A DNA stretch of 17,609 nucleotides from positions 1 to 17,609 of the IMG/VR virus record IMGVR_UViG_2675903413_000002, one strand, 5' to 3'. Numbering within the stretch: position 1 is the stretch's first letter; every line of letters starts with the position of its first letter. The position numbers and the translations under genes were made by a program. Below, one piece after another: positions 1 through 17,609 of this stretch. A model generated the notes under the pieces. The model saw only the letters and a program-made list of their open reading frames with translations, made no database searches and was not told the origin of the DNA. Origin of the DNA: a virus (taxonomy: Duplodnaviria > Heunggongvirae > Uroviricota > Caudoviricetes).

Positions 1-1734
1 ATGAAAGAAAAAAAATTCGTTAGTGAGCTTTTCCTTGAAAATGGGCAGTTTATTTTAGTCGGTTTGACAGGTCGAACTGGTTCTGGTTGCACAACAACAG
101 CTAATATTCTTGAAAACGAAAAAACAGTCTTCCCTGATGTAAGTAAATTACAGGGGTTTTACAAGGGATTGGATGTCCATCGTTATAATATAGTTAAAAA
201 ATTCGCAGAAAATCACTGGGAAAATTTTTACTCAATTAAGGTGAGTGACCTAATCTCAGCGTATCTTCTGATGTTAACAGCTGAGGAAGCTTCTGAATTC
301 ATTCTATCATCTAATAAATCTATCAGTAAAGAGCATTTAGATATTGTATTAACTTTTGGTGTATTCTCAGATAATCTCATTTTGACAAGATTTAAAAATG
401 TAATTGAGAATTTGCTTGATCATAATAGTGAATTGAAGCTTGATGAAAAAACGATTAATAAATTTATATCAATTTTGAAGTTAGTTAGAAAATTTACTAA
501 AGAATTCAAAGCTGAACTAAATGAGATAAACTCAAATTTATATGTTTCAGCCTATCAGTTAGCAGGTAAGTCAATTAGACGTCGTGGGCGTATTGAAGTC
601 GATTTTGAAGATAAAGAGTTTATGCCTAAATCTGTTTTTCATTTGCCGGAAACTATTAATAGGGTTATTAAATTAATAAGAAAAAGCAAAAGAGATAACG
701 CATTAATTGTCATAGATGCTATTAGAAATCCATATGAGGCAAAATTTTTTAAGGATAGATATTCTGCATTTCATTTAATGTCAATAAATGCCCCGGATGA
801 ACATCGAACAAACTATTTGCGGAAACTACATAAGTTTTCAGAAAAGCAGATAGAGGAAATAGATTCTGTAGAGTCAGGTAAAGGTGATAACTCTTACAAA
901 CATCTCACCAATCCAAATGTAACTAAATGTATTGAACTATCAGATATACACATTTTTAACCCAAAAAATGAATTTGATAATGACAATATTTTAAAAGCAC
1001 AATTAGCGTGGTACATCGCACTGATGAAGCATCCTGGTCTGATAACACCTACTGCAATGGAAAGGGTTATGCAAGTTGCGTATACGGTAAAATTAAACTC
1101 TGGCTGTATATCTAGACAGGTGGGAGCTGTAGTAACTGATGGTGATAATTCAATAAAATCAGTTGGTTGGAATGATGTTGCCAACGGTCAGATTCCTTGC
1201 TCTATGAGATCTCTAGATGGCCTAATGAACGATTTTGATGAAAAAACGTACAGTCATTATGAGAGAAATAATAGTTCTTTCAGAATTAAAGCTAATGAGA
1301 AACTCTTAAATTTTAGGGCGATAGATAAAACTGGTGATATTTATAGAGGCAGGAACTTATCTTATTGTTTTAAAGATATACATAATGATCTTGATAAAGA
1401 GAAAAAAGGTAATCAAGTTCATACACGTGCATTACATGCTGAGGAAAACGCATTTTTGCAACTTGCAAAATATGGTGGTATTGGCGTTCTGGGGGGGAAG
1501 TTGTATACAACTGCCAGTCCCTGTGAGTTGTGTGCGAAAAAAGCTTATCAGTTAGGTATATCTGAAATTGTATTTATTGATCCCTACCCAGGTATAGCTC
1601 AAGACCATATTATTAATATAGGTAGTAAGCCACCAAAGTTAATACAATTTAGAGGCGCAATTGGGAAGTCATATCACCGACTTTATGAGCAAATTATCCC
1701 GATAAAAGATGAGTTAGAATATCTCCTTGAGTAG
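1..1734 (+). CDS. Two-domain nucleotide deaminase, AvcD/dCTP-deaminase-like putative anti-phage protein (N-terminal P-loop kinase-like domain, C-terminal dCMP/cytidine deaminase zinc-binding domain)
   Basis: 577-aa ORF starting at window position 1. N-terminal glycine-rich P-loop-like motif GLTGRTGSGCTT (nt 61-96) with Cys where the Walker A Lys normally sits. C-terminal HAEENA (nt 1435-1452) and PCELC (nt 1519-1533) match the H(A/C)E...PCxxC zinc-binding signature of dCMP/cytidine deaminases. Gene is visibly AT-rich relative to the prophage backbone. Confidence 0.6.
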   Translation: MKEKKFVSELFLENGQFILVGLTGRTGSGCTTTANILENEKTVFPDVSKLQGFYKGLDVHRYNIVKKFAENHWENFYSIKVSDLISAYLLMLTAEEASEFILSSNKSISKEHLDIVLTFGVFSDNLILTRFKNVIENLLDHNSELKLDEKTINKFISILKLVRKFTKEFKAELNEINSNLYVSAYQLAGKSIRRRGRIEVDFEDKEFMPKSVFHLPETINRVIKLIRKSKRDNALIVIDAIRNPYEAKFFKDRYSAFHLMSINAPDEHRTNYLRKLHKFSEKQIEEIDSVESGKGDNSYKHLTNPNVTKCIELSDIHIFNPKNEFDNDNILKAQLAWYIALMKHPGLITPTAMERVMQVAYTVKLNSGCISRQVGAVVTDGDNSIKSVGWNDVANGQIPCSMRSLDGLMNDFDEKTYSHYERNNSSFRIKANEKLLNFRAIDKTGDIYRGRNLSYCFKDIHNDLDKEKKGNQVHTRALHAEENAFLQLAKYGGIGVLGGKLYTTASPCELCAKKAYQLGISEIVFIDPYPGIAQDHIINIGSKPPKLIQFRGAIGKSYHRLYEQIIPIKDELEYLLE

Positions 1735-1766
1735 AAATATTATACTCATCCTTCCTGAGGTAAGCT

Positions 1767-1798
1767 TCAAGATGATCAATAAATATTGATCATCTTGA
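1767..1798. repeat. Perfect 14-bp inverted repeat (TCAAGATGATCAAT / ATTGATCATCTTGA) with 4-bp spacer, containing two GATC sites
   Basis: Read directly from sequence, 33 bp downstream of the deaminase stop codon; no T-tract follows on either strand, so it is not a classical intrinsic terminator. Confidence 0.8.
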
Positions 1799-2114
1799 AA
1801 GTTAATTGCAGAGTCAAACTAGTAGTCAGACTGAAGCTTCGATAAAAAATGTTTTTGTTTTTTTCATTTTCTAATGACTGTTTTTTATTGGTTTCTTTTT
1901 AATGTTGCAATGCTATGCTTTTCTACTATTTTTGAATGTGGCATCTTTGATGTTTTTATACAACAAAGATGAGGGCTTATAGGTTTTTTTGTGATGTAAA
2001 AATTATCTTATTCTATAAATAAAACCTAAACTCAGTCTGAAGAGTTAAATGAGAATGGATAACCTGCTGAATATTATATTTGTAAATAGTTTGAGTTTGT
2101 TTTCATAAGTTACT

Positions 2115-3131
2115 CTATCTTAAGTTGCATAAAGGGTTTTTAGTTACCGCATCTTCAAGGTGATCGGGCGAAAAGTGGGCGTAAATCATCGTCATTTTTA
2201 TATCGGCATGGCCCAGAATATCGCGCAGCACCAGTATGTTTCCGCCATTCATCATAAAATGGCTGGCGAATGTATGACGTAGCACGTGAGTGCATTGGCC
2301 CTCTGGCAGCTCGATGCCAGCTCGCTTTACTGCTCGTTCAAAGGCTTTTCTGCACGGGGTGAATAGCTTCCCTCTGTTCTTGGGGAGTTCGTCATACAGA
2401 TCTTGAGATATCGGCACGGTGCGGTTTTTCTTACCCTTCGTCTTGGTATAAGTGATGCGGTATTTAGATAACTGATGGCCCTGCAGGTTTTCAGCTTCAC
2501 TCCAGCGTGCGCCGGTGGCCAGGCATATTTTTGCAATCAAAAGCAGACTGGGGTTTTGAGAATCAGCGCAGGCATCTAGCAGACGTTTAATTTCTTCCGA
2601 GGTCAGGAACGCCAGTTCCCCCTCAGCGATTTTAAATGTTGGCAGCCCGGCGAGAGGATTTGGTGCTGACCAGTGGCCTAGTTTTTTCAATGTGCCGAAA
2701 ACCGATGATAGGTTACGTTGCTCAAGATTCACCGTGCGTGGTTTTACTGGCGACATTAGTGTGCCGTCTTCGTTACGAACGTCACCTTTTAACCGTGCTT
2801 CGCGGTATTTCGTAAAGTCACCGGCTGTCAGTTCTGAGGCGATGGGGTCGCCTAGACCATTACAGATAATTCTAAGTTTCGCCATGAGGCGCTTGGGGTC
2901 TGCGAGTGTCTGACCATACAGGGAATACCAAAGCTCAATTAATTCTGATAGGCGTCGCCGATCATCCTTTTCACCCAACCACGGTTTTTTATTCACTTCT
3001 TCCATTGTGAAGCTTTCAAAAGCAATGGCTTCGCCTTTCGTAGCAAATTGCTTACGCACGCGCTTACCATTGCGTCCATTGGGATAGCACTCACACAACC
3101 ATTTTCCGTTCGGCTGTTTTCTGATGGTCAT
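2115..3131 (-). CDS. int: Tyrosine recombinase, P2/186-family phage integrase
   Basis: 338-aa ORF; C-terminal catalytic motifs HVLRHTFAS (HxxR) and MTMIYAH (Tyr nucleophile); N-terminus MTIRKQPNGKWLCECYPNGRNGKR is typical of P2-family Int; lies immediately downstream of the repressor gene as in 186. Confidence 0.9.
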   Translation of the reverse strand: MTIRKQPNGKWLCECYPNGRNGKRVRKQFATKGEAIAFESFTMEEVNKKPWLGEKDDRRRLSELIELWYSLYGQTLADPKRLMAKLRIICNGLGDPIASELTAGDFTKYREARLKGDVRNEDGTLMSPVKPRTVNLEQRNLSSVFGTLKKLGHWSAPNPLAGLPTFKIAEGELAFLTSEEIKRLLDACADSQNPSLLLIAKICLATGARWSEAENLQGHQLSKYRITYTKTKGKKNRTVPISQDLYDELPKNRGKLFTPCRKAFERAVKRAGIELPEGQCTHVLRHTFASHFMMNGGNILVLRDILGHADIKMTMIYAHFSPDHLEDAVTKNPLCNLR

Positions 3132-3132
3132 A

Positions 3133-3765
3133 TCAAAGGCTCTTAATGATTTTCAGTGCGCGGCCTACTACCTCAATGTCATCTAGGCCACACTCAAACG
3201 ATGAATCATCCTGATGCACTACTAATTTGTTTCCCGGAAGTCGAGTCAATTTAACAATGCTTTTTATCCCGTCAATATCGACTAACCACATACCATTTAC
3301 TGGTGGTGTTTGGTTGCGATCTATTAAATAAGAATCACCAGAAGTAGTCACCAGCAGTAGGTTGCTTGAGTCTGAGGGGAGTATGCTGCTATCAATGATT
3401 GCTTTTCCAGCATCGACCAATAAACCACCGTTGAGAGTCGCCTTGTCAATTTCAGGAGATACTAGTTCAGAAAGAGGTACAACCTTGCTGGAGTTCACGG
3501 AATTGATATTTTTTTTAGGTTCAATGTTTGGACCTGGCTCCCCCTGTCCGGTGGTTAGCCACAGTAAAGAAACTCCTGTTTCCAAGGCGCACTGAATCAC
3601 CCACTCTGCAGGAAAACTATCTCTTAAGTATCTGTTTGCCATGGTACTTTTTGATGCGCCTAAGTGATCGCAAAGTTGCTGTCTGGACTTGAAATCATAG
3701 GCTGCCATTAGTCTATGGATAGCCTCTCTTCCCCCTGTATTCTCTCCAACCTTTACCTGTATCAT
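3133..3765 (-). CDS. cI: CI-like prophage repressor (helix-turn-helix N-terminal domain)
   Basis: 210-aa ORF directly upstream of int on the same strand (stop 3133, int start 3131); HTH-like segment (SKSTMANRYLR); AGGA ribosome-binding site 7 nt before the ATG; divergent from a rightward promoter with operator-like repeats. Confidence 0.7.
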   Translation of the reverse strand: MIQVKVGENTGGREAIHRLMAAYDFKSRQQLCDHLGASKSTMANRYLRDSFPAEWVIQCALETGVSLLWLTTGQGEPGPNIEPKKNINSVNSSKVVPLSELVSPEIDKATLNGGLLVDAGKAIIDSSILPSDSSNLLLVTTSGDSYLIDRNQTPPVNGMWLVDIDGIKSIVKLTRLPGNKLVVHQDDSSFECGLDDIEVVGRALKIIKSL

Positions 3766-9870: not shown

Positions 9871-10950
9871 GTGGCGTTATCAGATGCGTTAATTACAGTA
9901 AATCAAGCAGAACGGGGCGGTGAAAACGCGTTGAGAGGCTTTTCATATCAAGCCTCTTGGGGGATAAATTATTTACTTGAGAAACAAAAAGAAAAGGAGA
10001 AATATTTATTTCTATTTGAATATCATGACGATATTCTTGTATTGAATTCATCTGTTTCTCCGACTAGTGCTGAGTTTATCCAAGTTAAAACAAAAAAAGA
10101 TGGTAAATGGACACTCGCAGCAATAGTGAACGCAACAAAAGCTAAACCTAAATCATTTGTTGCAAAACTATATGACCATTTCTATCAATTCGTTGGTCAC
10201 GAAATTTATATGGTTCTGTTATCGAATGCTGGATTCGATTTCTTAAATGATAATAACGAAAAAGGTAGTGATCTTAATAATGAGCATAAGGAAATTATAA
10301 TTAGTAAGGTTCAAGAGCAGCTAAATACTAAAAAAGAAGTTCCTCTTGATAAAATAAAATTTAAAACATCTGATCTTAGTTTGTTAGATCCTAACTCACA
10401 TTTATACGGGAAAGTTGCAGTTTTTTTGAATTCTTACTTTGGGGATGATCATGGTATTAATTCAACAGCATTCACTAAATTATTAATCAATAAGTGTAAT
10501 GAGAAGGTTAGTGTTGCTTCTAGTGATATCAAAACTTTTGAAGATTTAGTACTAAAGAAAGGTATATCTTCAGAATTTGTAACTGATTTATTATCTGGAC
10601 TCATTGCAAGCATAAAAATAACGCCAAAATGGGAACAGGTTTGTATGTTGCTTGGTACTTTCTCAGATCCTTATGAGGGGATTAAATTACAATCAGTTTT
10701 TACACGCATATCAATAAAAGTGCTCAATGTCAATTCAATATACTATCTTTATTTTCTGGAATTTCAATCGGCTCTAAAGAGTATAGAGCATTATCGTGAG
10801 ATACCTGTTCGAGACCTCTTCTTTACACTCGAAAAAACAATTGCAGCGGGGGACGGGGATTTCTCTTTATTAAATCAAGAAGAGAAATTTATGATTGCTA
10901 TATATGCAATTATAAAGTTGACTTTTGAGGATGTTTCTTATGAAGAATAA
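9871..10950 (+). CDS. Putative defence effector: DUF4297/Cap4-like PD-(D/E)xK nuclease N-terminal domain with a C-terminal domain of unknown function (LmuA-like)
   Basis: 359-aa ORF with GTG start and TAGGGA Shine-Dalgarno-like sequence; N-terminal RGFSYQASWGINYLL motif followed by EYHDDILVL...EFIQVKTKK (Asp53/Asp54, Glu68, Gln71-x-Lys73) resembling a PD-(D/E)xK core; strongly AT-rich; sits between the cos-like site and the portal remnant. Confidence 0.65.
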   Translation: MALSDALITVNQAERGGENALRGFSYQASWGINYLLEKQKEKEKYLFLFEYHDDILVLNSSVSPTSAEFIQVKTKKDGKWTLAAIVNATKAKPKSFVAKLYDHFYQFVGHEIYMVLLSNAGFDFLNDNNEKGSDLNNEHKEIIISKVQEQLNTKKEVPLDKIKFKTSDLSLLDPNSHLYGKVAVFLNSYFGDDHGINSTAFTKLLINKCNEKVSVASSDIKTFEDLVLKKGISSEFVTDLLSGLIASIKITPKWEQVCMLLGTFSDPYEGIKLQSVFTRISIKVLNVNSIYYLYFLEFQSALKSIEHYREIPVRDLFFTLEKTIAAGDGDFSLLNQEEKFMIAIYAIIKLTFEDVSYEE

Positions 10951-12598
10951 CGTTAAATTTAAAAATATAAAAATACTCTCATTAAGAGACAGAAAAGCTT
11001 TTTCTTATGAGTTTTCAGAAGGGGTTAACTTCATATATGGTACAAATGATGTTGGTAAATCAAGCCTGATTAAAAGTCTTTATTACACATTAGGTGGAGA
11101 TTTAAGGCTTGATGATGCTTGGAAATCAGATGATATAGTTACACTGGTGGAAATTAATAACGGGGAAAGTGATTTTATTTTTTTGCGTTATAAAAAGATT
11201 ATTGGTGTCTTTGATTTGAAGAATGATGATCTAGTCGTGTATAACACGATTTCGTCATTAGCATCTCGTGTTTCAAATATATTTGGTTTTAAACTGGAAT
11301 TACATAATAAATATACGGGTGCTACGACTCAGGCAAACCCTGCTTGTTTGTTTGCCCCATTCTTTATTGATCAGGATGAAGGATGGAAAGCGGTGATAAA
11401 TTCTTTCGAAAACATGAGTATGTACTCAGAATGGCAAAAAAACATTCTTTACTATCACTCTGGAATTAAGCCAAAGGAATATTACACAGTTCAAGGGAAA
11501 ATCAAAGAAGTTAAAGTTAAAATTTCAGAGTTAGATGGTTTTGTTAAGGTTCTAAAAAGAAGCAAAAGTAAGATTGATGAATCTTTTGGTGTGGTTTTAT
11601 TTGATGTTGATTTGGATTTTTATAAATCAAAGTTAGAACGTATATTAAATGAATATTCTAATTTGAATTTAGTTCAGACAGAATATAGATTGAATCTTTT
11701 GAGGTTATATTCTAGGAAGAATTTCCTTGAGAGTGAACTCAAAGAGATAACTGCGATTATTGATAATGAATTTGAGATTTCGAATTTTCGAGATGATAAT
11801 GTTGCTTATTCAGTAAATGAATATAATTATATAAACCATAGAGATGAAATGCTCAAAAACATTGCTGTTCTTGCAGATGAGAAAAGCAAGATTGAGGAAA
11901 ATATTCCTAAATTGAATCAAAAGCTAGAAGAGTCAAGGGCTGCTTCAGAGGCGTTGCAGGCGCTGATTTTAGAAACTCAATCGGAAATAACGCTTCATGA
12001 TGTTATTAAATCTGCTGCATACCATGAAATTGAATCTACTTTTGTTTCACAGTTAGATGAGTTATTCGTTGAGATTGGTCGAAAAGAAGGCGAGTTGACA
12101 GAATTACAAGAAGAATTAGAAGTATACAATGATAAGAAAAGAACTGTTAAAATAAATGACTGTTTCAAAGAGTATTTCGCTAAAGCTCTTAAAGAGCTTG
12201 GTGTCGAAAATACAAAGGTAGGTGGCCTTAGTAGTTATAATAATATTACTAAGGGTAAGACTGGTAGTCGAGGTCCTCGAGGTATATTTGCATTTCACTA
12301 CGCGCTACTTAGTGTTATGAAAAGCAACTCTTCAGTTGAGAATATGCCTATAGTAATAGACTCTCCAAAGCAACAAGATTTGGATCCAGAGCATACGCAT
12401 AAGCTTATAAAACTATGCTTGGATGGGTTTTCCCTTACAAATCAGATTATTATTGGCACTGTTGGTTATGAGAGTTTCATGGATGGTTTTAATAGCATCA
12501 AACTTGAAAATAAATATCATCTTTTAAATGATGAACATTATGATAATGTTTATTCTCAATTAATGCCATTGTTTGAACGGGTGATACTTTCAAGATGA
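10940..12598 (+). CDS. SMC/Rad50-like coiled-coil ATPase (LmuB-like)
   Basis: About 552 aa from ATG 10940 (ribosome-binding site GAGGAT 7 nt upstream; overlaps the upstream stop by 11 nt). Walker A GTNDVGKSS (nt 11039-11065); long Glu/Lys/Leu-rich coiled-coil middle; C-terminal Walker B-like MPIVIDSPKQQD (nt about 12344-12379). Confidence 0.75.
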   Translation: MKNNVKFKNIKILSLRDRKAFSYEFSEGVNFIYGTNDVGKSSLIKSLYYTLGGDLRLDDAWKSDDIVTLVEINNGESDFIFLRYKKIIGVFDLKNDDLVVYNTISSLASRVSNIFGFKLELHNKYTGATTQANPACLFAPFFIDQDEGWKAVINSFENMSMYSEWQKNILYYHSGIKPKEYYTVQGKIKEVKVKISELDGFVKVLKRSKSKIDESFGVVLFDVDLDFYKSKLERILNEYSNLNLVQTEYRLNLLRLYSRKNFLESELKEITAIIDNEFEISNFRDDNVAYSVNEYNYINHRDEMLKNIAVLADEKSKIEENIPKLNQKLEESRAASEALQALILETQSEITLHDVIKSAAYHEIESTFVSQLDELFVEIGRKEGELTELQEELEVYNDKKRTVKINDCFKEYFAKALKELGVENTKVGGLSSYNNITKGKTGSRGPRGIFAFHYALLSVMKSNSSVENMPIVIDSPKQQDLDPEHTHKLIKLCLDGFSLTNQIIIGTVGYESFMDGFNSIKLENKYHLLNDEHYDNVYSQLMPLFERVILSR

Positions 12599-12638: not shown

Positions 12639-13148
12639 TTAAATTTTTAGTTCGTAGGTTGAAAAATTTATAATTCTATCGTTTAACCAATTATTTATTT
12701 CTAGAAACATTTTTTGTAGAGGCAGTAGCTCATTTCGTACAAATACTGTGCTTGCCTTTTCGATATCCCCAAACCCCCCGACATTATTAGGCATTATCCC
12801 CATCATTTGTGGCGGCACACGATGCGCCGCCATCATGTCGTCCCGGCTCACGTTCTTGATATTCAGGAACTCATCCTTCGCCGCCACTTCTGACAACGGG
12901 ATAATCTGAAGCCCGTCCTTTTTACCGTTAGGCGAGTACATAAACAGGTTACGGAAGTTACCAGGACCTTTGGCGCTTTTCATCGCATTGCGGAGGTTGT
13001 TCACATCCTCCTGGTTCTGCGCAGCATCGGTCATGTACATGATGAAGCCTGCATGACTGCCGTTAATGTAATACTTGCGGCGGAACAGCGTGGCGGACTC
13101 GTTGAGCAGAGCTGACGGAATGGCAGAAAGATAGGTGCTCTGCTCAGT
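12639..13148 (-). pseudogene. Q: Portal protein (gpQ-like) C-terminal fragment; 5' part of the gene deleted
   Basis: Only about the last 170 codons of the minus-strand ORF look portal-like (…HRVPPQMMGIMPNNVGGFGDIEKAS…). The ORF-track upstream extension to 13565 is the antisense strand of the tape-measure fragment and is rejected. Confidence 0.5.
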
Positions 13149-13160
13149 CCGATAGGTCTT

Positions 13161-14051
13161 GTGGTTACTGCACTGGCGGGCGTGGCGCTGGTTGTCTGGA
13201 AATACTGGCAACCCATCACCGCATTTCTCGCTGGTGTGGTGGAAGGATTCAAAGCGGCGGCAGGTCCCATCAGTGCAGCATTCGAACCACTTAAGCCTGT
13301 GTTTCAGTGGATTGGCGACAAAGTGCAGGCGTTGTGGGGCTGGTTTACTGATCTGCTGACGCCCGTTAAGTCGACCTCTGCCGAACTGCAGAGCGCAGCG
13401 GCAATGGGGCGACGATTCGGGGAGGCACTGGCGGAAGGGCTGAATATGGTCATGCATCCGCTGGACTCCCTGAAATCCAGCGTTTCCTGGTTGCTGGAAA
13501 AACTCGGCATTGTCAGTAAAGAGGCTGCAAAGGCGAAACTGCCGGAAAGAGTGACGCGTCAGCAACCTGCGACGGTGAATGCAGACGGTAAAGTGATGAT
13601 GCCATCGGGTGGTTTTCCGTCATGGGGATATGGCTTTGCGGGGATGTATGACAGCGGCGGCTATATCCCGCGCGGGCAGTTTGGCATCGTCGGTGAAAAC
13701 GGGCCGGAAATTGTTAACGGCCCGGCAAATGTGACCAGCCGGAGAAATACAGCTGCACTGGCTGCCGTTGTTGCCGGAATGATGGGCGTTGCTGCCGCGC
13801 CTGCAGAGCTTCCACCGTTGCATCCTTTGGCACTTCCCGCGAAAGGCGGCGAAGCGATGGTGAGTCGTGCAGCCACTGTGCCGCCCGTTCACCGGATTGA
13901 GGCACCGACGCAGATCATCATTCAGACGCAGCCAGGACAAAGTGCGCAGGATATTGCGCGGGAGGTGGCACGCCAGCTTGATGAACGTGAACGCAGGCTG
14001 AAGGCAAAAGCCAGGAGTAACTACAGCGATCAGGGGGGATACGACGCATGA
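13161..14051 (+). pseudogene. T: Tail tape-measure protein (gpT-like) C-terminal fragment
   Basis: 296-aa ORF rich in Ala/Gly with a …GIVGENGPEIVNGPANVT… segment typical of tape-measure C-termini; far shorter than the about 800 aa expected; directly followed by U and D as in P2; abuts the portal fragment with no intervening structural genes. Confidence 0.55.
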
Positions 14052-14533
14052 TGATGGTGCTGGGATTGTACGTGTTTATGCTGAGCACCGTTCCGTATCA
14101 GGAACTGCAGTATCAACGCAGCTGGCGACATGCGGCAAACAGCCGGGTAAACCGTCGTCCGTCCACGCAGTTTCTGGGACCGGACAACGACATGCTGACG
14201 CTTTCTGGTGTTCTTATGCCGGAGATAACGGGCGGCAGGCTGTCGTTGCTGGCTCTGGAGCAGATGGCAGAACAGGGAAAAGCATGGCCCCTGATTGAAG
14301 GCAGCGGCACGATTTACGGCATGTATGTGATTGAGGGACTGAATCAGACTAAAACGGAGTTTTTCCGCGATGGTATGCCGCGCCGGATTGAGTTTACCCT
14401 GTCGCTCAAACGTGTGGATGAATCCCTGTCCGATATGTTCGGTGATCTCAGTGCGCAGCTGAATAATTTGCAGGATACGGCAACGTCTGCCTTAAGCGAT
14501 ATCAGTAAAACGGTGGGAGGGCTGCTGTCGTGA
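14048..14533 (+). CDS. U: Tail protein gpU-like
   Basis: 161-aa ORF, start overlapping the T stop (ATGA); position and size match P2 gpU between T and D. Confidence 0.7.
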   Translation: MMMVLGLYVFMLSTVPYQELQYQRSWRHAANSRVNRRPSTQFLGPDNDMLTLSGVLMPEITGGRLSLLALEQMAEQGKAWPLIEGSGTIYGMYVIEGLNQTKTEFFRDGMPRRIEFTLSLKRVDESLSDMFGDLSAQLNNLQDTATSALSDISKTVGGLLS

Positions 14534-15630
14534 ATTTCAGCTCTGAACTGCTTAACAAAGGCAACAAAACTCCCGCATTCAGCATCAGTATTGAGGGGAA
14601 GGATATCACCACTGTGCTGGATAACCGCCTGATGAGTCTGACGTTGACGGACAATCGGGGCTTTGAAGCAGACCAGCTTGATCTGGAGCTGGACGACGCC
14701 GACGGAAAAATCGTGCTGCCGCGCCGTGGTGCGGTCATCACGCTGGCGCTGGGCTGGAAGGGGCAGCCGCTTTTCCCGAAAGGGGCATTCACGGTGGACG
14801 AGATTGAACACACTGGCGCACCGGATCGCCTGACTATCCGGGCGCGAAGTGCTGATTTTAGGGAAACGCTGAATACCCGCCGTGAAAAATCGTGGCACAA
14901 GACCACCGTCGGGGAAGTGGTGAAGGAAATAGCCGCGCGGCACAAGCTGAAGATGGCACTGGGTAAAGACCTGTCGGATAAGCCCGTGGAACATATAGAC
15001 CAGACCAATGAGAGTGACGGCAGTTTTCTGATGCGGCTGGCGCGCCAGTACGGTGCTATTGCGTCGGTGAAAAATGGCAATCTGTTATTCATCCGGCAGG
15101 GACAGGGCAAAAGCGCCAGCGGTAAACCTCTGCCGGTGATCACTATCACACGCAAGGACGGCGACAGTCACCGCTTTACCCTGGCAGATCGCGGAGCCTA
15201 TACGGGGGTAATTGCCAGTTGGTTGCATACCCGCGAACCCGTGAAGAAAGAAAGCACCACGGTGAAGCGTAAGCGCAGGACCGCAAAGCAGAAGAAAGAG
15301 CCGGAAGCGAAGCAGGGCGATTACCTGGTGGGTACGGATGAAAACGTGCTGGTACTTAATCGCACTTATGCCAACCGGAACAACGCTGAACGGGCAGCGA
15401 AAATGCAGTGGGAACGCCTGCAACGCGGCGTTGCGTCATTCTCGCTACAACTGGCGGAAGGTCGGGCAGATCTCTACACGGAAATGCCAGTGAAAGTCAG
15501 TGGCTTTAAACAGCCGATAGATGATGCGGAATGGACCATTACGACTCTGACACATACCGTCAGCCCGGATAACGGTTTTACAACCAGTATTGAACTCGAA
15601 GTGAAGATTGATGATCTTGAAATGGAATAA
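14530..15630 (+). CDS. D: Tail protein gpD-like
   Basis: 366-aa ORF with GTG start overlapping the U stop (GTGA); located immediately upstream of ogr as in P2. Confidence 0.7.
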   Translation: MNFSSELLNKGNKTPAFSISIEGKDITTVLDNRLMSLTLTDNRGFEADQLDLELDDADGKIVLPRRGAVITLALGWKGQPLFPKGAFTVDEIEHTGAPDRLTIRARSADFRETLNTRREKSWHKTTVGEVVKEIAARHKLKMALGKDLSDKPVEHIDQTNESDGSFLMRLARQYGAIASVKNGNLLFIRQGQGKSASGKPLPVITITRKDGDSHRFTLADRGAYTGVIASWLHTREPVKKESTTVKRKRRTAKQKKEPEAKQGDYLVGTDENVLVLNRTYANRNNAERAAKMQWERLQRGVASFSLQLAEGRADLYTEMPVKVSGFKQPIDDAEWTITTLTHTVSPDNGFTTSIELEVKIDDLEME

Positions 15631-15943: not shown

Positions 15944-16426
15944 TTATTCATCTGGGATCTCACCCGTTTCAAGAAAATGTATAAAGCCAGGCTCATCTAT
16001 GATGATTGTGCCTTTCATCCTGGCTGCCGATACTTTTGATGGGCCTGCATTGTAACCGCAACAGAGCATCTGAAGGCTTTGGGTTACAGAGGTTCTTACC
16101 GTTAATCCTTGTTCATTCGCCTTATCAACCAATCTTTCTTTATCTGCTTTCTTAAATCCGGTGAAGCACACATCGAATGTATTTTTTTTCGGACCAGACT
16201 GCTTAGTGAGATGTGAGTAGTTTTCGGGGAGGAATGACGCGCATTCCTGAATGGCTTGTTCTGGTGAATCGTACTGTTTAAGAATGCGGTCTTTTCGGAA
16301 GGTTTTTATTCGATCGGTGTTCTTACAAATGCCCTGTATATGATTTTCGCTATAACTGATGCTCTGTATTGAGTGAACACCGATACGACCATTTGCATTG
16401 ATGTAAACAAAGTGAAGTTCTTCCAT
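15944..16426 (-). CDS. WYL-like N-terminal domain / BRCT C-terminal domain protein
   Basis: 160-aa ORF with ribosome-binding site AAGAGG. C-terminal FDVCFTGFKKADKERLVDKANEQGLTV...NAGPSKVSAARMKGTIIIDEPGF resembles the BRCT domain of NAD-dependent DNA ligase; N-terminal …RIKTFRKDRIL… resembles the WYL motif. Confidence 0.6.
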   Translation of the reverse strand: MEELHFVYINANGRIGVHSIQSISYSENHIQGICKNTDRIKTFRKDRILKQYDSPEQAIQECASFLPENYSHLTKQSGPKKNTFDVCFTGFKKADKERLVDKANEQGLTVRTSVTQSLQMLCCGYNAGPSKVSAARMKGTIIIDEPGFIHFLETGEIPDE

Positions 16427-16539: not shown

Positions 16540-16549
16540 TTGATTTATT

Positions 16550-16912
16550 TGGTGGAGCTGGCGGGAGTTGAACCCGCGTCCGAAATTCCTACATCCTCGG
16601 TACTACATGCTTAGTCAGTCTTTACATTCGCTTGCCAGCTGCGGACGGACACGCCACTAACAAACTAGCCTGATTAAGTTTTAACGCTTCAACCCCAGGC
16701 AGGGCTTCCACGCGATCTCTTTTGGGTTTGACCTCTCTTGATCCCCGTCCTAAGAGCGGAGGCTAGGGAGAGAGGGCTCTAAGCAGGTTATTAAGCTGCT
16801 AAAGCGTAGTTTTCGTCGTTTGCGACTATTTTTTGCGGCTTTTTACGAGGCCAACCGCCCCTCGGCATGCACCTTGGGTTTCGCAAATCCCGTCGAATCC
16901 AGAATCAGCCCC
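16550..16912 (-). ncRNA. ssrA: tmRNA (transfer-messenger RNA, SsrA)
   Basis: Minus strand begins GGGGCTGATTCTGGATTCGACGGG and ends …GGTTCAACTCCCGCCAGCTCCACCA; contains the tag reading frame GCAAACGACGAAAACTACGCTTTAGCAGCTTAA (ANDENYALAA); 363 nt, enterobacterial-type. Confidence 0.95.
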
Positions 16913-17126: not shown

Positions 17127-17609
17127 TTAACGGTGGGCGTTTTTCATGATACGTGCTTTATCCACCTGCCATTCGCGCTCTTTGATATCTGAACGTTTAT
17201 CGTGCTGTTTCTTACCTTTGGCGACGCCGATTTTCACTTTGCACCAGGCATTTTTCCAGTACAGGGAGAGCGCCACTACGGTATAGCCTTCTCGATTGAC
17301 GCGACCGTACAATGAGTCCAGTTCGCGCTGGTTGAGAAGTAACTTGCGGGTACGGGTAGGATCGCACACCACATGCGTGGAGGCCACGGCCATTGGCGTG
17401 ATGTTAGCGCCAAACAGAAATGCCTCTCCGTCACGCAGAAGGACGTAGCTGTCGCTGATATTGGCTTTTCCTGCGCGCAGGGATTTAACTTCCCAGCCTT
17501 GCAGGGCAAGTCCCGCTTCGAACTCTTCTTCGATAAAGTATTCGTGACGGGCGCGCTTGTTAAGCGCGATGGTCGCTGAACCAGGTTTATGTGCTTTTTT
17601 CTTCGTCAT
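17127..17609 (-). CDS. smpB: SsrA-binding protein SmpB
   Basis: 160-aa [31 protein letters not shown]… essentially identical to enterobacterial SmpB; directly upstream of ssrA on the same strand; start codon at the window edge. Confidence 0.95.

Follow-up and report, generated by a model that had tools for sequence, protein, structure and literature searches.

[quoted passage not shown] The proposed function follows from homology, as the encoded protein and the AW1.7 enzyme (WP_045268677; Tal et al., Nat Microbiol 2022) align from end to end with 72% identity (577 versus 576 aa). The value as a discovery is small: the gene is already correctly named in RefSeq, the family, its mechanism and the essential Cys30 are published and already known, and a hotspot for defence genes between att and the integrase has been reported in P2-like prophages. 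What is useful is the correction that the deaminase gene is cargo of the prophage and not its neighbour, the refinement that the protein groups with the AW1.7 enzyme and not with the AvcD proteins, and the two unannotated gene families that fill the slot in sister prophages, as candidates for defence screening.

Domain architecture and family placement

The window begins exactly at the ATG of the deaminase gene. The following features were assigned to the gene and its product:

1..1734, plus strand: coding sequence of the putative anti-phage dCTP deaminase, 577 aa, ATG at base 1 (open reading frame and translation)
1..1035, plus strand: predicted N-terminal NMP-kinase-like P-loop domain with a helical insertion within it, about aa 1-345
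70..96, plus strand: P-loop GRTGSGCTT, aa 24-32, with Cys30 replacing the Walker-A Lys
1048..1635, plus strand: predicted C-terminal zinc-dependent dCMP-deaminase-fold domain, about aa 350-545
1105..1200, plus strand: stretch from Cys369 to Cys400, the equivalents of AW1.7 C370 and C401 in the alignment
1435..1443, plus strand: HAE motif, aa 479-481, with His479 as predicted zinc ligand and Glu481 as predicted catalytic residue
1519..1533, plus strand: PCELC motif, aa 507-511, with Cys508 and Cys511 as predicted zinc ligands

The protein passed the NCBIfam equivalog NF041025 "anti-phage dCTP deaminase" with 425.4 bits against a cutoff of 400 (E 2.4e-127, profile positions 1-437 of 437), and the same model yielded 449 bits for the AW1.7 enzyme and 470 bits for AvcD of ETEC. 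It was also matched by the PADLOC dCTPase profile (1.7e-145) and by Pfam dCMP_cyt_deam_1 (1.6e-14), and stayed below threshold for the ComEB/dCMP deaminase equivalog TIGR02571 (36 bits versus a cutoff of 219). A kinase-like N-terminal domain, a zinc cytidine/dCMP deaminase C-terminal domain and a length above 350 aa, by which Tal et al. delimit the family, are all present. The locus of RefSeq protein WP_021565872.1 (FDAARGOS_1337) corresponds to window positions 1-2114 at 100% nucleotide identity, and the identical gene is labelled anti-phage dCTP deaminase there. A preliminary description, made from the letters of the window, had proposed this identity together with the kinase-like plus dCMP-deaminase architecture; both are upheld by the HMM comparison (NF041025, PADLOC) and by the alignment with the AW1.7 enzyme. 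The features on which it had relied, i.e. a P-loop with Cys at the Lys position, HAE...PCxxC, AT-richness and convergence with int, were all seen in the sequence, the GC content being 33.1% for the gene and 27.4% for the spacer behind it compared to 48.5% for int and 46.3% for the remaining prophage.

The likeness to the AW1.7 enzyme extends to an identical P-loop GRTGSGCTT (G29, C30), the domain architecture, the zinc and catalytic residues, the equivalents of C370 and C401 and the equivalog. The AW1.7 gene also adjoins an integrase gene in a tRNA-linked mobile element; nevertheless, its carrier differs, as it is a small tRNA-Phe island with a P4-type integrase and a DUF927 primase-like gene, whereas the window gene is found at ssrA, in a 186/P2-like prophage where it fills the slot between att and int, and the upstream non-coding regions of the two genes are unrelated. 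The AvcD proteins of V. cholerae, V. parahaemolyticus and E. coli ETEC H10407 p58 (Hsueh et al. 2022, 2023) have the same overall architecture and fall into equivalog NF041025; by analogy, the window protein would share with them the deamination of deoxycytidine nucleotides as a defence and an activation tied to the shut-off of host transcription. However, identity to ETEC AvcD is 26% over the C-terminal 60% (aa 228-572), the N-terminal region barely aligns, and the P-loop of ETEC AvcD, which is also non-canonical, is a different one (GFAGCGMKT). Judged by sequence, the window protein belongs to the AW1.7 clade rather than to the AvcD clade. The deaminase domain is nearest to dCMP deaminases in both sequence and fold, including T4 Cd and the enzyme of cyanophage S-TIM5. 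The dCMP deaminases of T4 (Cd, 1vq2), S. mutans (2hvv) and S-TIM5 (4p9c) and the bifunctional dCMP/dCTP deaminase of PBCV-1 (7fh4) have the fold and the HAE...PCxxC zinc site of the C-terminal domain, but they serve metabolism, consist of one domain of about 140-190 aa and have neither a kinase-like N-terminal domain nor a defence role. An AF2 model of the protein reached a pLDDT of 79.9, and neither sequence nor profile searches retrieved a solved structure matching the N-terminal domain.

The P-loop region reads GLTGRTGSGCTT, with the Walker-A stretch G24-R-T-G-S-G29-C30-T31. Conservation was followed in 115 close homologues and in 150 distant representatives at 35-59% identity. All 115 full-length close homologues keep the P-loop with Cys30, and the catalytic and zinc residues are conserved among them as well; in the distant representatives the position is occupied by Cys in 131 of 138 and by Lys in none. 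The His and Glu of the HAE motif are kept in 149 of the 150 representatives, as is Cys508, while Cys511 is found in 148 and both Cys369 and Cys400 are invariant (150/150). In these alignments, Cys at the Walker-A Lys position is a hallmark of the family, conserved throughout, and not a peculiarity of the window gene. Thus, of the "non-canonical" P-loop emphasised in the preliminary description, Cys30 itself stands but is nothing new, since the residue is family-wide and has already been mutated in AW1.7, where G29A, C30A, C370A and C401A each abolish defence (Tal et al. preprint, bioRxiv 10.1101/2021.04.26.441389). Because the P-loop always carries Cys in place of the catalytic Lys, the N-terminal domain, judged by fold and conservation, most likely serves to bind a nucleotide or to regulate, and not to transfer phosphoryl groups.

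The deaminase gene was present in 20 of 5,426 complete E. coli genomes (0.4%) and is accessory, not core; a housekeeping dCMP deaminase-kinase fusion conserved in the core genome, considered earlier as the outcome that would overturn the identification, is not what was found. In PHROGs the family appears among (pro)phage proteins as phrog_8118, "unknown function", and no full-length homologue was detected in sequenced free phages, lytic or temperate, at ≥80% coverage. The carriers of homologues comprise an ICE, the tRNA-Phe island, plasmids and a Vibrio region with a ParE toxin and short repeated 30-aa ORFs. A scan of genome contigs for related loci yielded a single, incomplete Photobacterium locus.

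Proposed mechanism and the upstream region

The AW1.7 homologue defends against several phages; after infection with T7, dCTP, dCDP and dCMP are depleted and dUMP rises, and the mutations of T7 escape mutants lie in gp5.7, which inhibits the RNA polymerase of the host (bioRxiv 10.1101/2021.04.26.441389). Phage-triggered deamination and protection have been reported for the AW1.7 and U09 homologues as well as for AvcD proteins. By homology to what was shown in AW1.7, the window enzyme would be made constitutively and held inactive until an infecting phage tampers with host transcription. The activated enzyme would then turn dCTP, dCDP and dCMP into deoxyuridine nucleotides, and the collapse of the deoxycytidine pool would stall phage DNA replication. 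The C-terminal domain would act as the catalytic zinc deaminase, with His479, Glu481, Cys508 and Cys511 along with the invariant Cys369 and Cys400, and the N-terminal domain with its NMP-kinase-like fold and Cys P-loop would be essential, though probably not as a phosphotransferase.

The region upstream of the gene was read in locus L001, identical to the window over this stretch. The left-hand att copy lies there at -240 to -195 relative to base 1 (L001 19760-19805), so that only 195 bp separate att from the ATG; about 120 bp of these are a phage att arm common to sister prophages with other cargo, and the cassette-specific sequence amounts to about 76 bp before the ATG. The gene might be the toxin of an AvcID-type type III toxin-antitoxin system, in which an upstream AvcI-like RNA inhibits the deaminase and decays after phage-induced transcription shut-off, thereby releasing the enzyme. 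AvcD proteins pass the same equivalog, AvcI is encoded ahead of avcD and disappears once transcription is shut off (PMC10511110, PMC9455884), and the AW1.7 enzyme likewise responds to tampering with host RNA polymerase. Furthermore, the AW1.7 gene was tolerated when cloned together with its own upstream region, and a sizeable non-coding stretch precedes the gene at every locus examined. The dimensions of the locus speak against such a system: AvcI, the defining component of AvcID, has a minimum length of about 171 nt and is transcribed as an RNA of nearly 300 nt, compared to the 195 bp between att and ATG. The low identity to ETEC AvcD and the differing P-loops (GRTGSGCTT versus GFAGCGMKT) likewise count against it. 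The Rfam search upstream, at the E-value threshold, matched a tmRNA fragment only, the predicted RNA fold of the 195 nt was no better than that of shuffled sequences (z = +0.88), and the upstream regions of 11 lineages, compared by alignment and blastn-short, had no common block beyond the att repeat. A simple sigma-70 scan upstream of the ATG found no promoter. Inspection of this region, to which the preliminary description had referred a possible AvcI-like antitoxin, consequently detected no RNA that was conserved across lineages, structured or matched by Rfam; as there is no public model of AvcI and its sequence may not be conserved, this result does not prove its absence. Taken together, we regard an AvcID-type arrangement at this locus as unlikely. 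A tandem TGCCGCC at -101 and -90 was considered as a deaminase-specific promoter or RNA element and was rejected, as it lies in the att-proximal arm common to sister prophages with other cargo.

With only about 76 bp of its own ahead of the ATG, the cassette has too little room for an RNA of at least 171 nt, and we tentatively suggest that dCTP deaminases of the AW1.7 clade might work without an AvcI-type RNA antitoxin. The off-on switch would then be intrinsic to the protein, possibly via the invariant Cys P-loop binding a nucleotide whose level shifts on the phage-induced shut-down of host transcription. This proposal is conceivable, if still on the doubtful side; in any case, the AvcI RNA model should not be carried over to the window gene without evidence.

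The deaminase gene between att and integrase

The features that define the position of the gene in the prophage are as follows:

1735..2114, no strand: spacer of 380 bp between the convergent stops of the deaminase gene and int, AT-rich (27% GC), part of the swapped cassette
1761..1804, no strand: inverted repeat (hairpin) with 21-nt arms, 27 nt past the deaminase stop codon
2115..3131, minus strand: prophage tyrosine integrase, 338 aa, convergent with the deaminase gene (Pfam Int_N and Phage_integrase; RefSeq "site-specific integrase")
16549..16594, no strand: right-hand att copy, the 3' end of ssrA and the only copy in the window
16550..16912, minus strand: ssrA (tmRNA), integration target of the prophage (ARAGORN; RefSeq annotation of identical loci)

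A defective 186/P2-like prophage is integrated at ssrA, and it carries the deaminase gene as cargo between att and int. In L001 att is a direct repeat of 46 nt, and two copies each were found in L001, L004, L033 and L034. The left-hand copy was read in genomes identical over this stretch, with L001 as reference, and it is situated upstream of the deaminase gene. No third copy or remnant was detected between the gene and int (window positions 1-2300, up to 3 mismatches in 38 nt, and blastn-short). Two att copies flank the element and none separates the gene from int; the deaminase gene therefore lies inside the prophage, and its earlier placement immediately outside the integrase end had to be corrected. 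The left att copy is beyond the window, so the prophage boundary could not have been checked from the window. The integrase family was found in 219 of 5,426 genomes.

A position outside the prophage would make the gene a remnant of an older ssrA-linked island beside which the P2-like phage integrated. The ssrA site of E. coli is known to host tandem and decayed elements (PMC10121019), and an older integrase fragment was indeed seen beyond the left att copy (NCTC9038, TUM1887); moreover, the gene is convergent with int, has a far lower GC content and is separated from it by the 380-bp spacer, and in the P0007 lineage it resides in small islands without an intact prophage. However, after tandem insertion an att copy would be expected to separate the gene from int, and not even a remnant was found there. 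The sole second att copy is located beyond the gene as seen from int, and the older integrase fragment lies further out. In sister prophages with the same int, precisely this interval is filled by another single gene and homology breaks off sharply on both sides, and a Citrobacter homologue with 89% identity shows the identical order att-deaminase-int. Behind the deaminase gene, the P0007 islands still contain a piece of the int 3' end, and they are for this reason decayed copies of the att-deaminase-int arrangement. A gene left over from an older neighbouring island is accordingly very improbable. About 150 nt left of att, conserved between E. coli and Citrobacter, were examined as a possible special element and turned out to be the pre-integration flank of ssrA, between att and the older integrase.

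[quoted passage not shown] All four deaminase-bearing prophage copies examined were defective. The window prophage is without most structural genes, yet it retains the deaminase gene and a Lamassu system, which is consistent with host retention of defence cargo. That the gene instead serves nucleotide metabolism in host or prophage replication, as a T4 Cd-like enzyme or a dCMP deaminase-kinase fusion feeding dTTP synthesis, is most improbable: its deaminase domain is indeed closest to dCMP deaminases such as T4 Cd and that of S-TIM5 and phrog_8118 is listed without a function among (pro)phage proteins, but the gene occurs in no more than 20 of the 5,426 E. coli genomes, the family as a whole lacks the Walker-A Lys on which phosphoryl transfer depends, the 72%-identical AW1.7 protein depletes deoxycytidine nucleotides only on infection and blocks phages, slot and prophage hold other defence cargo, e.g., Lamassu, and sequenced free phages lack a full-length copy.

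The cargo slot in sister prophages

In sister prophages the slot between att and int is occupied by a phrog_7835 gene (about 400-420 aa) or a phrog_21256 gene (222 aa), in each case a single gene. Homology to these prophages breaks off at about -76 and, on the side of the int stop, at about 2112-2124 (2069 in one case). Defence hotspots of P2-like prophages have been described (Rousset et al. 2022, PMC9122126), and the att-integrase interval is a minor one, holding 3% of P2 defence systems (NAR 2026, PMC13586616); the term deaminase occurs 0 times in the latter report. In the window prophage, Lamassu takes up the classical gpA-portal hotspot and the deaminase gene the att-integrase interval, and the occupancy of this slot by deaminase, phrog_7835 or phrog_21256 genes is a detail of the described pattern. 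Neither phrog_7835 nor phrog_21256 had a Pfam, PADLOC or NCBIfam match. As a corollary of the RNA-independent control suggested above, both may be uncharacterised single-gene defence proteins, and the two unannotated families are reasonable candidates for defence screening.

The terminator scan did not call the hairpin at 1761..1804, which has no T-run. The predicted RNA fold of positions 1735-1830 was markedly stable (z = -4.78), with none of 200 shuffled sequences as stable, and the hairpin probably terminates transcription in both directions, that of the deaminase gene as well as that of int, which converge here.

Family assignment and the P-loop of the deaminase

The window opens with an uninterrupted reading frame, whose product has an N-terminal P-loop region that includes FILVGLTGRTGSGCTTTANIL and a dCMP/cytidine deaminase zinc-binding region (Pfam match over aa 353-525, 1.6e-14):

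1..1734, plus strand: deaminase gene, 577 aa, starting at base 1
aa 24-31 of the deaminase: Walker A motif, G24-R-T-G-S-G29-C30-T31, with Cys30 where the canonical Lys stands
aa 479-481 of the deaminase: HAE motif
aa 507-511 of the deaminase: PCELC motif

The protein reached 425 bits with the NCBIfam equivalog NF041025 'anti-phage dCTP deaminase' (cutoff 400), matched the PADLOC dCTPase model with 1.7e-145 and shared 72% identity with WP_045268677 of E. coli AW1.7 from end to end, supporting the identity that had been proposed from the sequence. Window 1-2114 was 100% identical to E. coli FDAARGOS_1337, whose annotation lists the gene as anti-phage dCTP deaminase WP_021565872.1. By every feature testable in silico, the window protein is to be classed as a member of this family. 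The features noted in the preliminary description (reading frame, P-loop with Cys, deaminase motifs, AT-richness and convergence with int) proved real, and the HMM scores lay far beyond chance. That the gene might instead encode a housekeeping dCMP deaminase of the core genome was contradicted by a TIGR02571 score of 36 bits (cutoff 219) and by its occurrence in 20 of 5426 complete E. coli genomes (0.4%). In PHROGs the family is phrog_8118, function unknown; no full-length homologue was found in sequenced free phages, and sequence and profile searches found no solved structure for the N-domain.

The P-loop had been described as non-canonical. Cys does occupy the Lys position, but this is not unusual: among the best 150 cluster representatives (35-59% identity), 138 have a residue there, which is Cys in 131 and Lys in none, and every one of 115 close homologues of full length (58% identity or more) has GRTGSGC[ST][ST]. 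C369 and C400 were invariant among the 150 representatives, and H479, E481, C508 and C511 were kept in 148-149 of them. Judged by this conservation, Cys30 is a family-wide trait and no peculiarity of the window gene. AW1.7, one of two genes cloned by Tal et al. and the one characterised in detail, lost both defence and dCTP depletion in each of the mutants G29A, C30A, C370A and C401A (bioRxiv 10.1101/2021.04.26.441389). Since C30A was thus made in a close homologue, the Cys30 experiment proposed earlier has in essence already been done. The family-wide loss of Lys with retention of the NMP-kinase fold supports the earlier suggestion that the N-domain is probably a nucleotide-binding or regulatory module rather than a kinase.

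The AW1.7 enzyme protects cells from a panel of phages; in its presence, T7 infection leads to a collapse of dCTP, dCDP and dCMP and an increase in dUMP, with ribonucleotides unaffected, and T7 escapes through mutations in gp5.7, a host RNA polymerase inhibitor (bioRxiv 10.1101/2021.04.26.441389). The window protein would perform the same catalytic chemistry through H479, E481, C508 and C511, would likewise require its Cys-containing P-loop domain, and would presumably be activated by phage-imposed shutdown of host transcription.

Location of the deaminase relative to the att copies

The window is bounded by the start codons (ATG) of the deaminase and smpB; between the deaminase and ssrA lies a 186/P2-like prophage that carries int, CI, CII, Fil, Dam, replication endonuclease A, a Lamassu pair, a truncated portal gene, a few tail genes, D and ogr. 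Sequence upstream of base 1 was read in L001, the identical FDAARGOS_1337 locus.

L001 19760-19805: left att copy (46 nt, direct repeat of the ssrA 3' end); 195 bp separate it from the deaminase ATG downstream
1761-1804: inverted repeat with near-perfect 21-nt arms, 27 nt past the deaminase stop
2115..3131, minus strand: int (integrase; Int_N and Phage_integrase), convergent with the deaminase
9871-10950, plus strand: LmuA, Cap4-nuclease/DUF4297, 359 aa (PADLOC 4e-143)
10925-12598, plus strand: LmuB, SMC-like ATPase, 557 aa, overlapping LmuA (PADLOC 6e-253)
12639-13565, minus strand: truncated portal gene (partial Phage_portal match), fused to the last genes of the late operon (tail protein, D, ogr)
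15944-16426, minus strand: 160-aa reading frame flanked by ogr and the att copy at ssrA, at the opposite prophage end
16550-16912, minus strand: ssrA (tmRNA)
17127..17609, minus strand: smpB

GC content was 33.1% in the deaminase, 27.4% in the 380-bp spacer after it, 48.5% in int and 46.3% in the remaining prophage. The hairpin at 1761-1804 (fold z = -4.78, without a T-run) is probably a bidirectional stop separating the convergent deaminase and int transcripts.

The gene had been placed immediately outside the prophage. The att copies argue for the opposite: one lies upstream of the deaminase, the second in FDAARGOS_1337 is at ssrA, and no copy or remnant was found between deaminase and int, the window's single copy being that at ssrA. 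These positions put the deaminase within the element that the att copies delimit, in the interval from att to int. A direct att search revealed the same two-copy pattern in NCTC9038. Just past the distal att position, NCTC9038 and TUM1887 carry part of a different, older integrase, as would be expected if the P2-like element, deaminase included, had integrated between ssrA and a pre-existing island.

The window prophage is defective, most head, lysis and tail genes being deleted within 12639-15630. All four deaminase-bearing copies inspected were defective, in different ways; the deletions in FDAARGOS_1337, NCTC9038 and TUM1887 differ from that in the window.

The att-int interval and the sequence upstream of the deaminase

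The int family was found in 219 of the 5426 complete E. coli genomes, compared to 20 for the deaminase. In sister prophages that share int, CI and the downstream genes, another single gene takes up the att-int interval, and homology between deaminase-bearing and other prophages ends at about -76 from the ATG and returns around 2112-2124, where int has its stop codon. Two alternatives occupy the slot:

L004 4716-5981, L036 2760-3983 and L037 2781-3986 (att-int loci), minus strand: phrog_7835, function unknown, 401-421 aa, in strains H2, S88 and LF82
L033 3371-4039, L038 3308-3976 and L015 2108-2734 (att-int loci), minus strand: phrog_21256, function unknown, 208-222 aa (222 aa in O157:H16 98-3133 and VCSW8)

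Because they share the slot with the deaminase and gave no Pfam, PADLOC or NCBIfam match, both are candidates for uncharacterised defence genes. In E. coli, the tmRNA locus is known as a hotspot for defence islands (PMC10121019). A Citrobacter homologue (89% identity) also shows the order att-deaminase-int, in some cases with an extra phrog_21256 gene. In the P0007 lineage (deaminase 75% identical), a 164-nt fragment matching the int 3' end directly follows the deaminase (L018/L019 4784-4947), and smpB is nearby in two loci (L019 and L020). This locus resembles a degraded version of the arrangement, in which the deaminase appears to have outlived the prophage that brought it.

An upstream antitoxin RNA had been considered by analogy with AvcD. 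AvcD proteins deaminate dCTP and dCMP, and AvcI, a labile RNA encoded upstream, inhibits the enzyme and disappears once transcription stops; its minimum is ~171 nt and its transcript nearly 300 nt (PMC10511110). NF041025 was passed by the window protein, AW1.7 and ETEC H10407 AvcD alike. Nevertheless, identity to the latter was only 26%, over aa 228-572, and its P-loop reads GFAGCGMKT compared to GRTGSGC in the window protein, which by sequence groups with the AW1.7 type, not AvcD. In the 195 nt between att and ATG, an Rfam search gave no match except a tmRNA fragment, folding was no better than that of shuffles (z = +0.88), and the upstream regions of ten other lineages had nothing in common with it besides the att repeat. 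Moreover, ~120 of the 195 nt are an att arm common to prophages with other cargo, so that only ~76 bp travel with the deaminase. An AvcI-like RNA thus finds no support and would be difficult to accommodate; the cassette boundaries speak weakly against an antitoxin of the AvcI type.

The att-proximal arm contains a tandem TGCCGCC motif (TGCCGCCAAAGTGCCGCC; L001 19900-19920, window -101 to -84), which E. coli and Citrobacter share and the P0007 lineage keeps in part. As it falls within the segment common to prophages with other cargo, the motif is more likely to be an arm site for the integrase or an accessory factor than an element regulating the deaminase.

Existing literature or RefSeq already covers the gene and its name, the essential Cys30 and the cargo position between att and int; our analysis adds the corrected location inside the prophage, the AW1.7-type assignment and the cassette boundaries as refinements, and the two unannotated slot families as leads.

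Further defence cargo and other carriers

The two Lmu genes represent a predicted complete Lamassu pair in the classical P2 gpA-portal hotspot, whose cargo differs among the four inspected copies; sister prophages carry DUF4145, an AAA ATPase with an S8 peptidase, a TIR protein or DUF4062 there. The 160-aa reading frame is a hypothetical or BRCT-domain protein in RefSeq and matches phrog_2561 ('DNA ligase', 2.2e-77) and, weakly, PADLOC PDC-S48 (1.8e-7). Since strain H2 has a reverse-transcriptase-domain protein at this position, the ogr-ssrA interval may be another variable slot.

Other dCTP deaminase homologues (L003 4044-5792, L002 5515-7245 and L022/L023 3001-4734) travel on other vehicles. 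That of E. coli LF82 lies within an integrative conjugative element, that of AW1.7 between a P4-type integrase and tRNA-Phe, and Pantoea homologues are on plasmids; in V. vulnificus, the surrounding region with a ParE toxin and repeated 30-aa reading frames resembles an integron cassette array.
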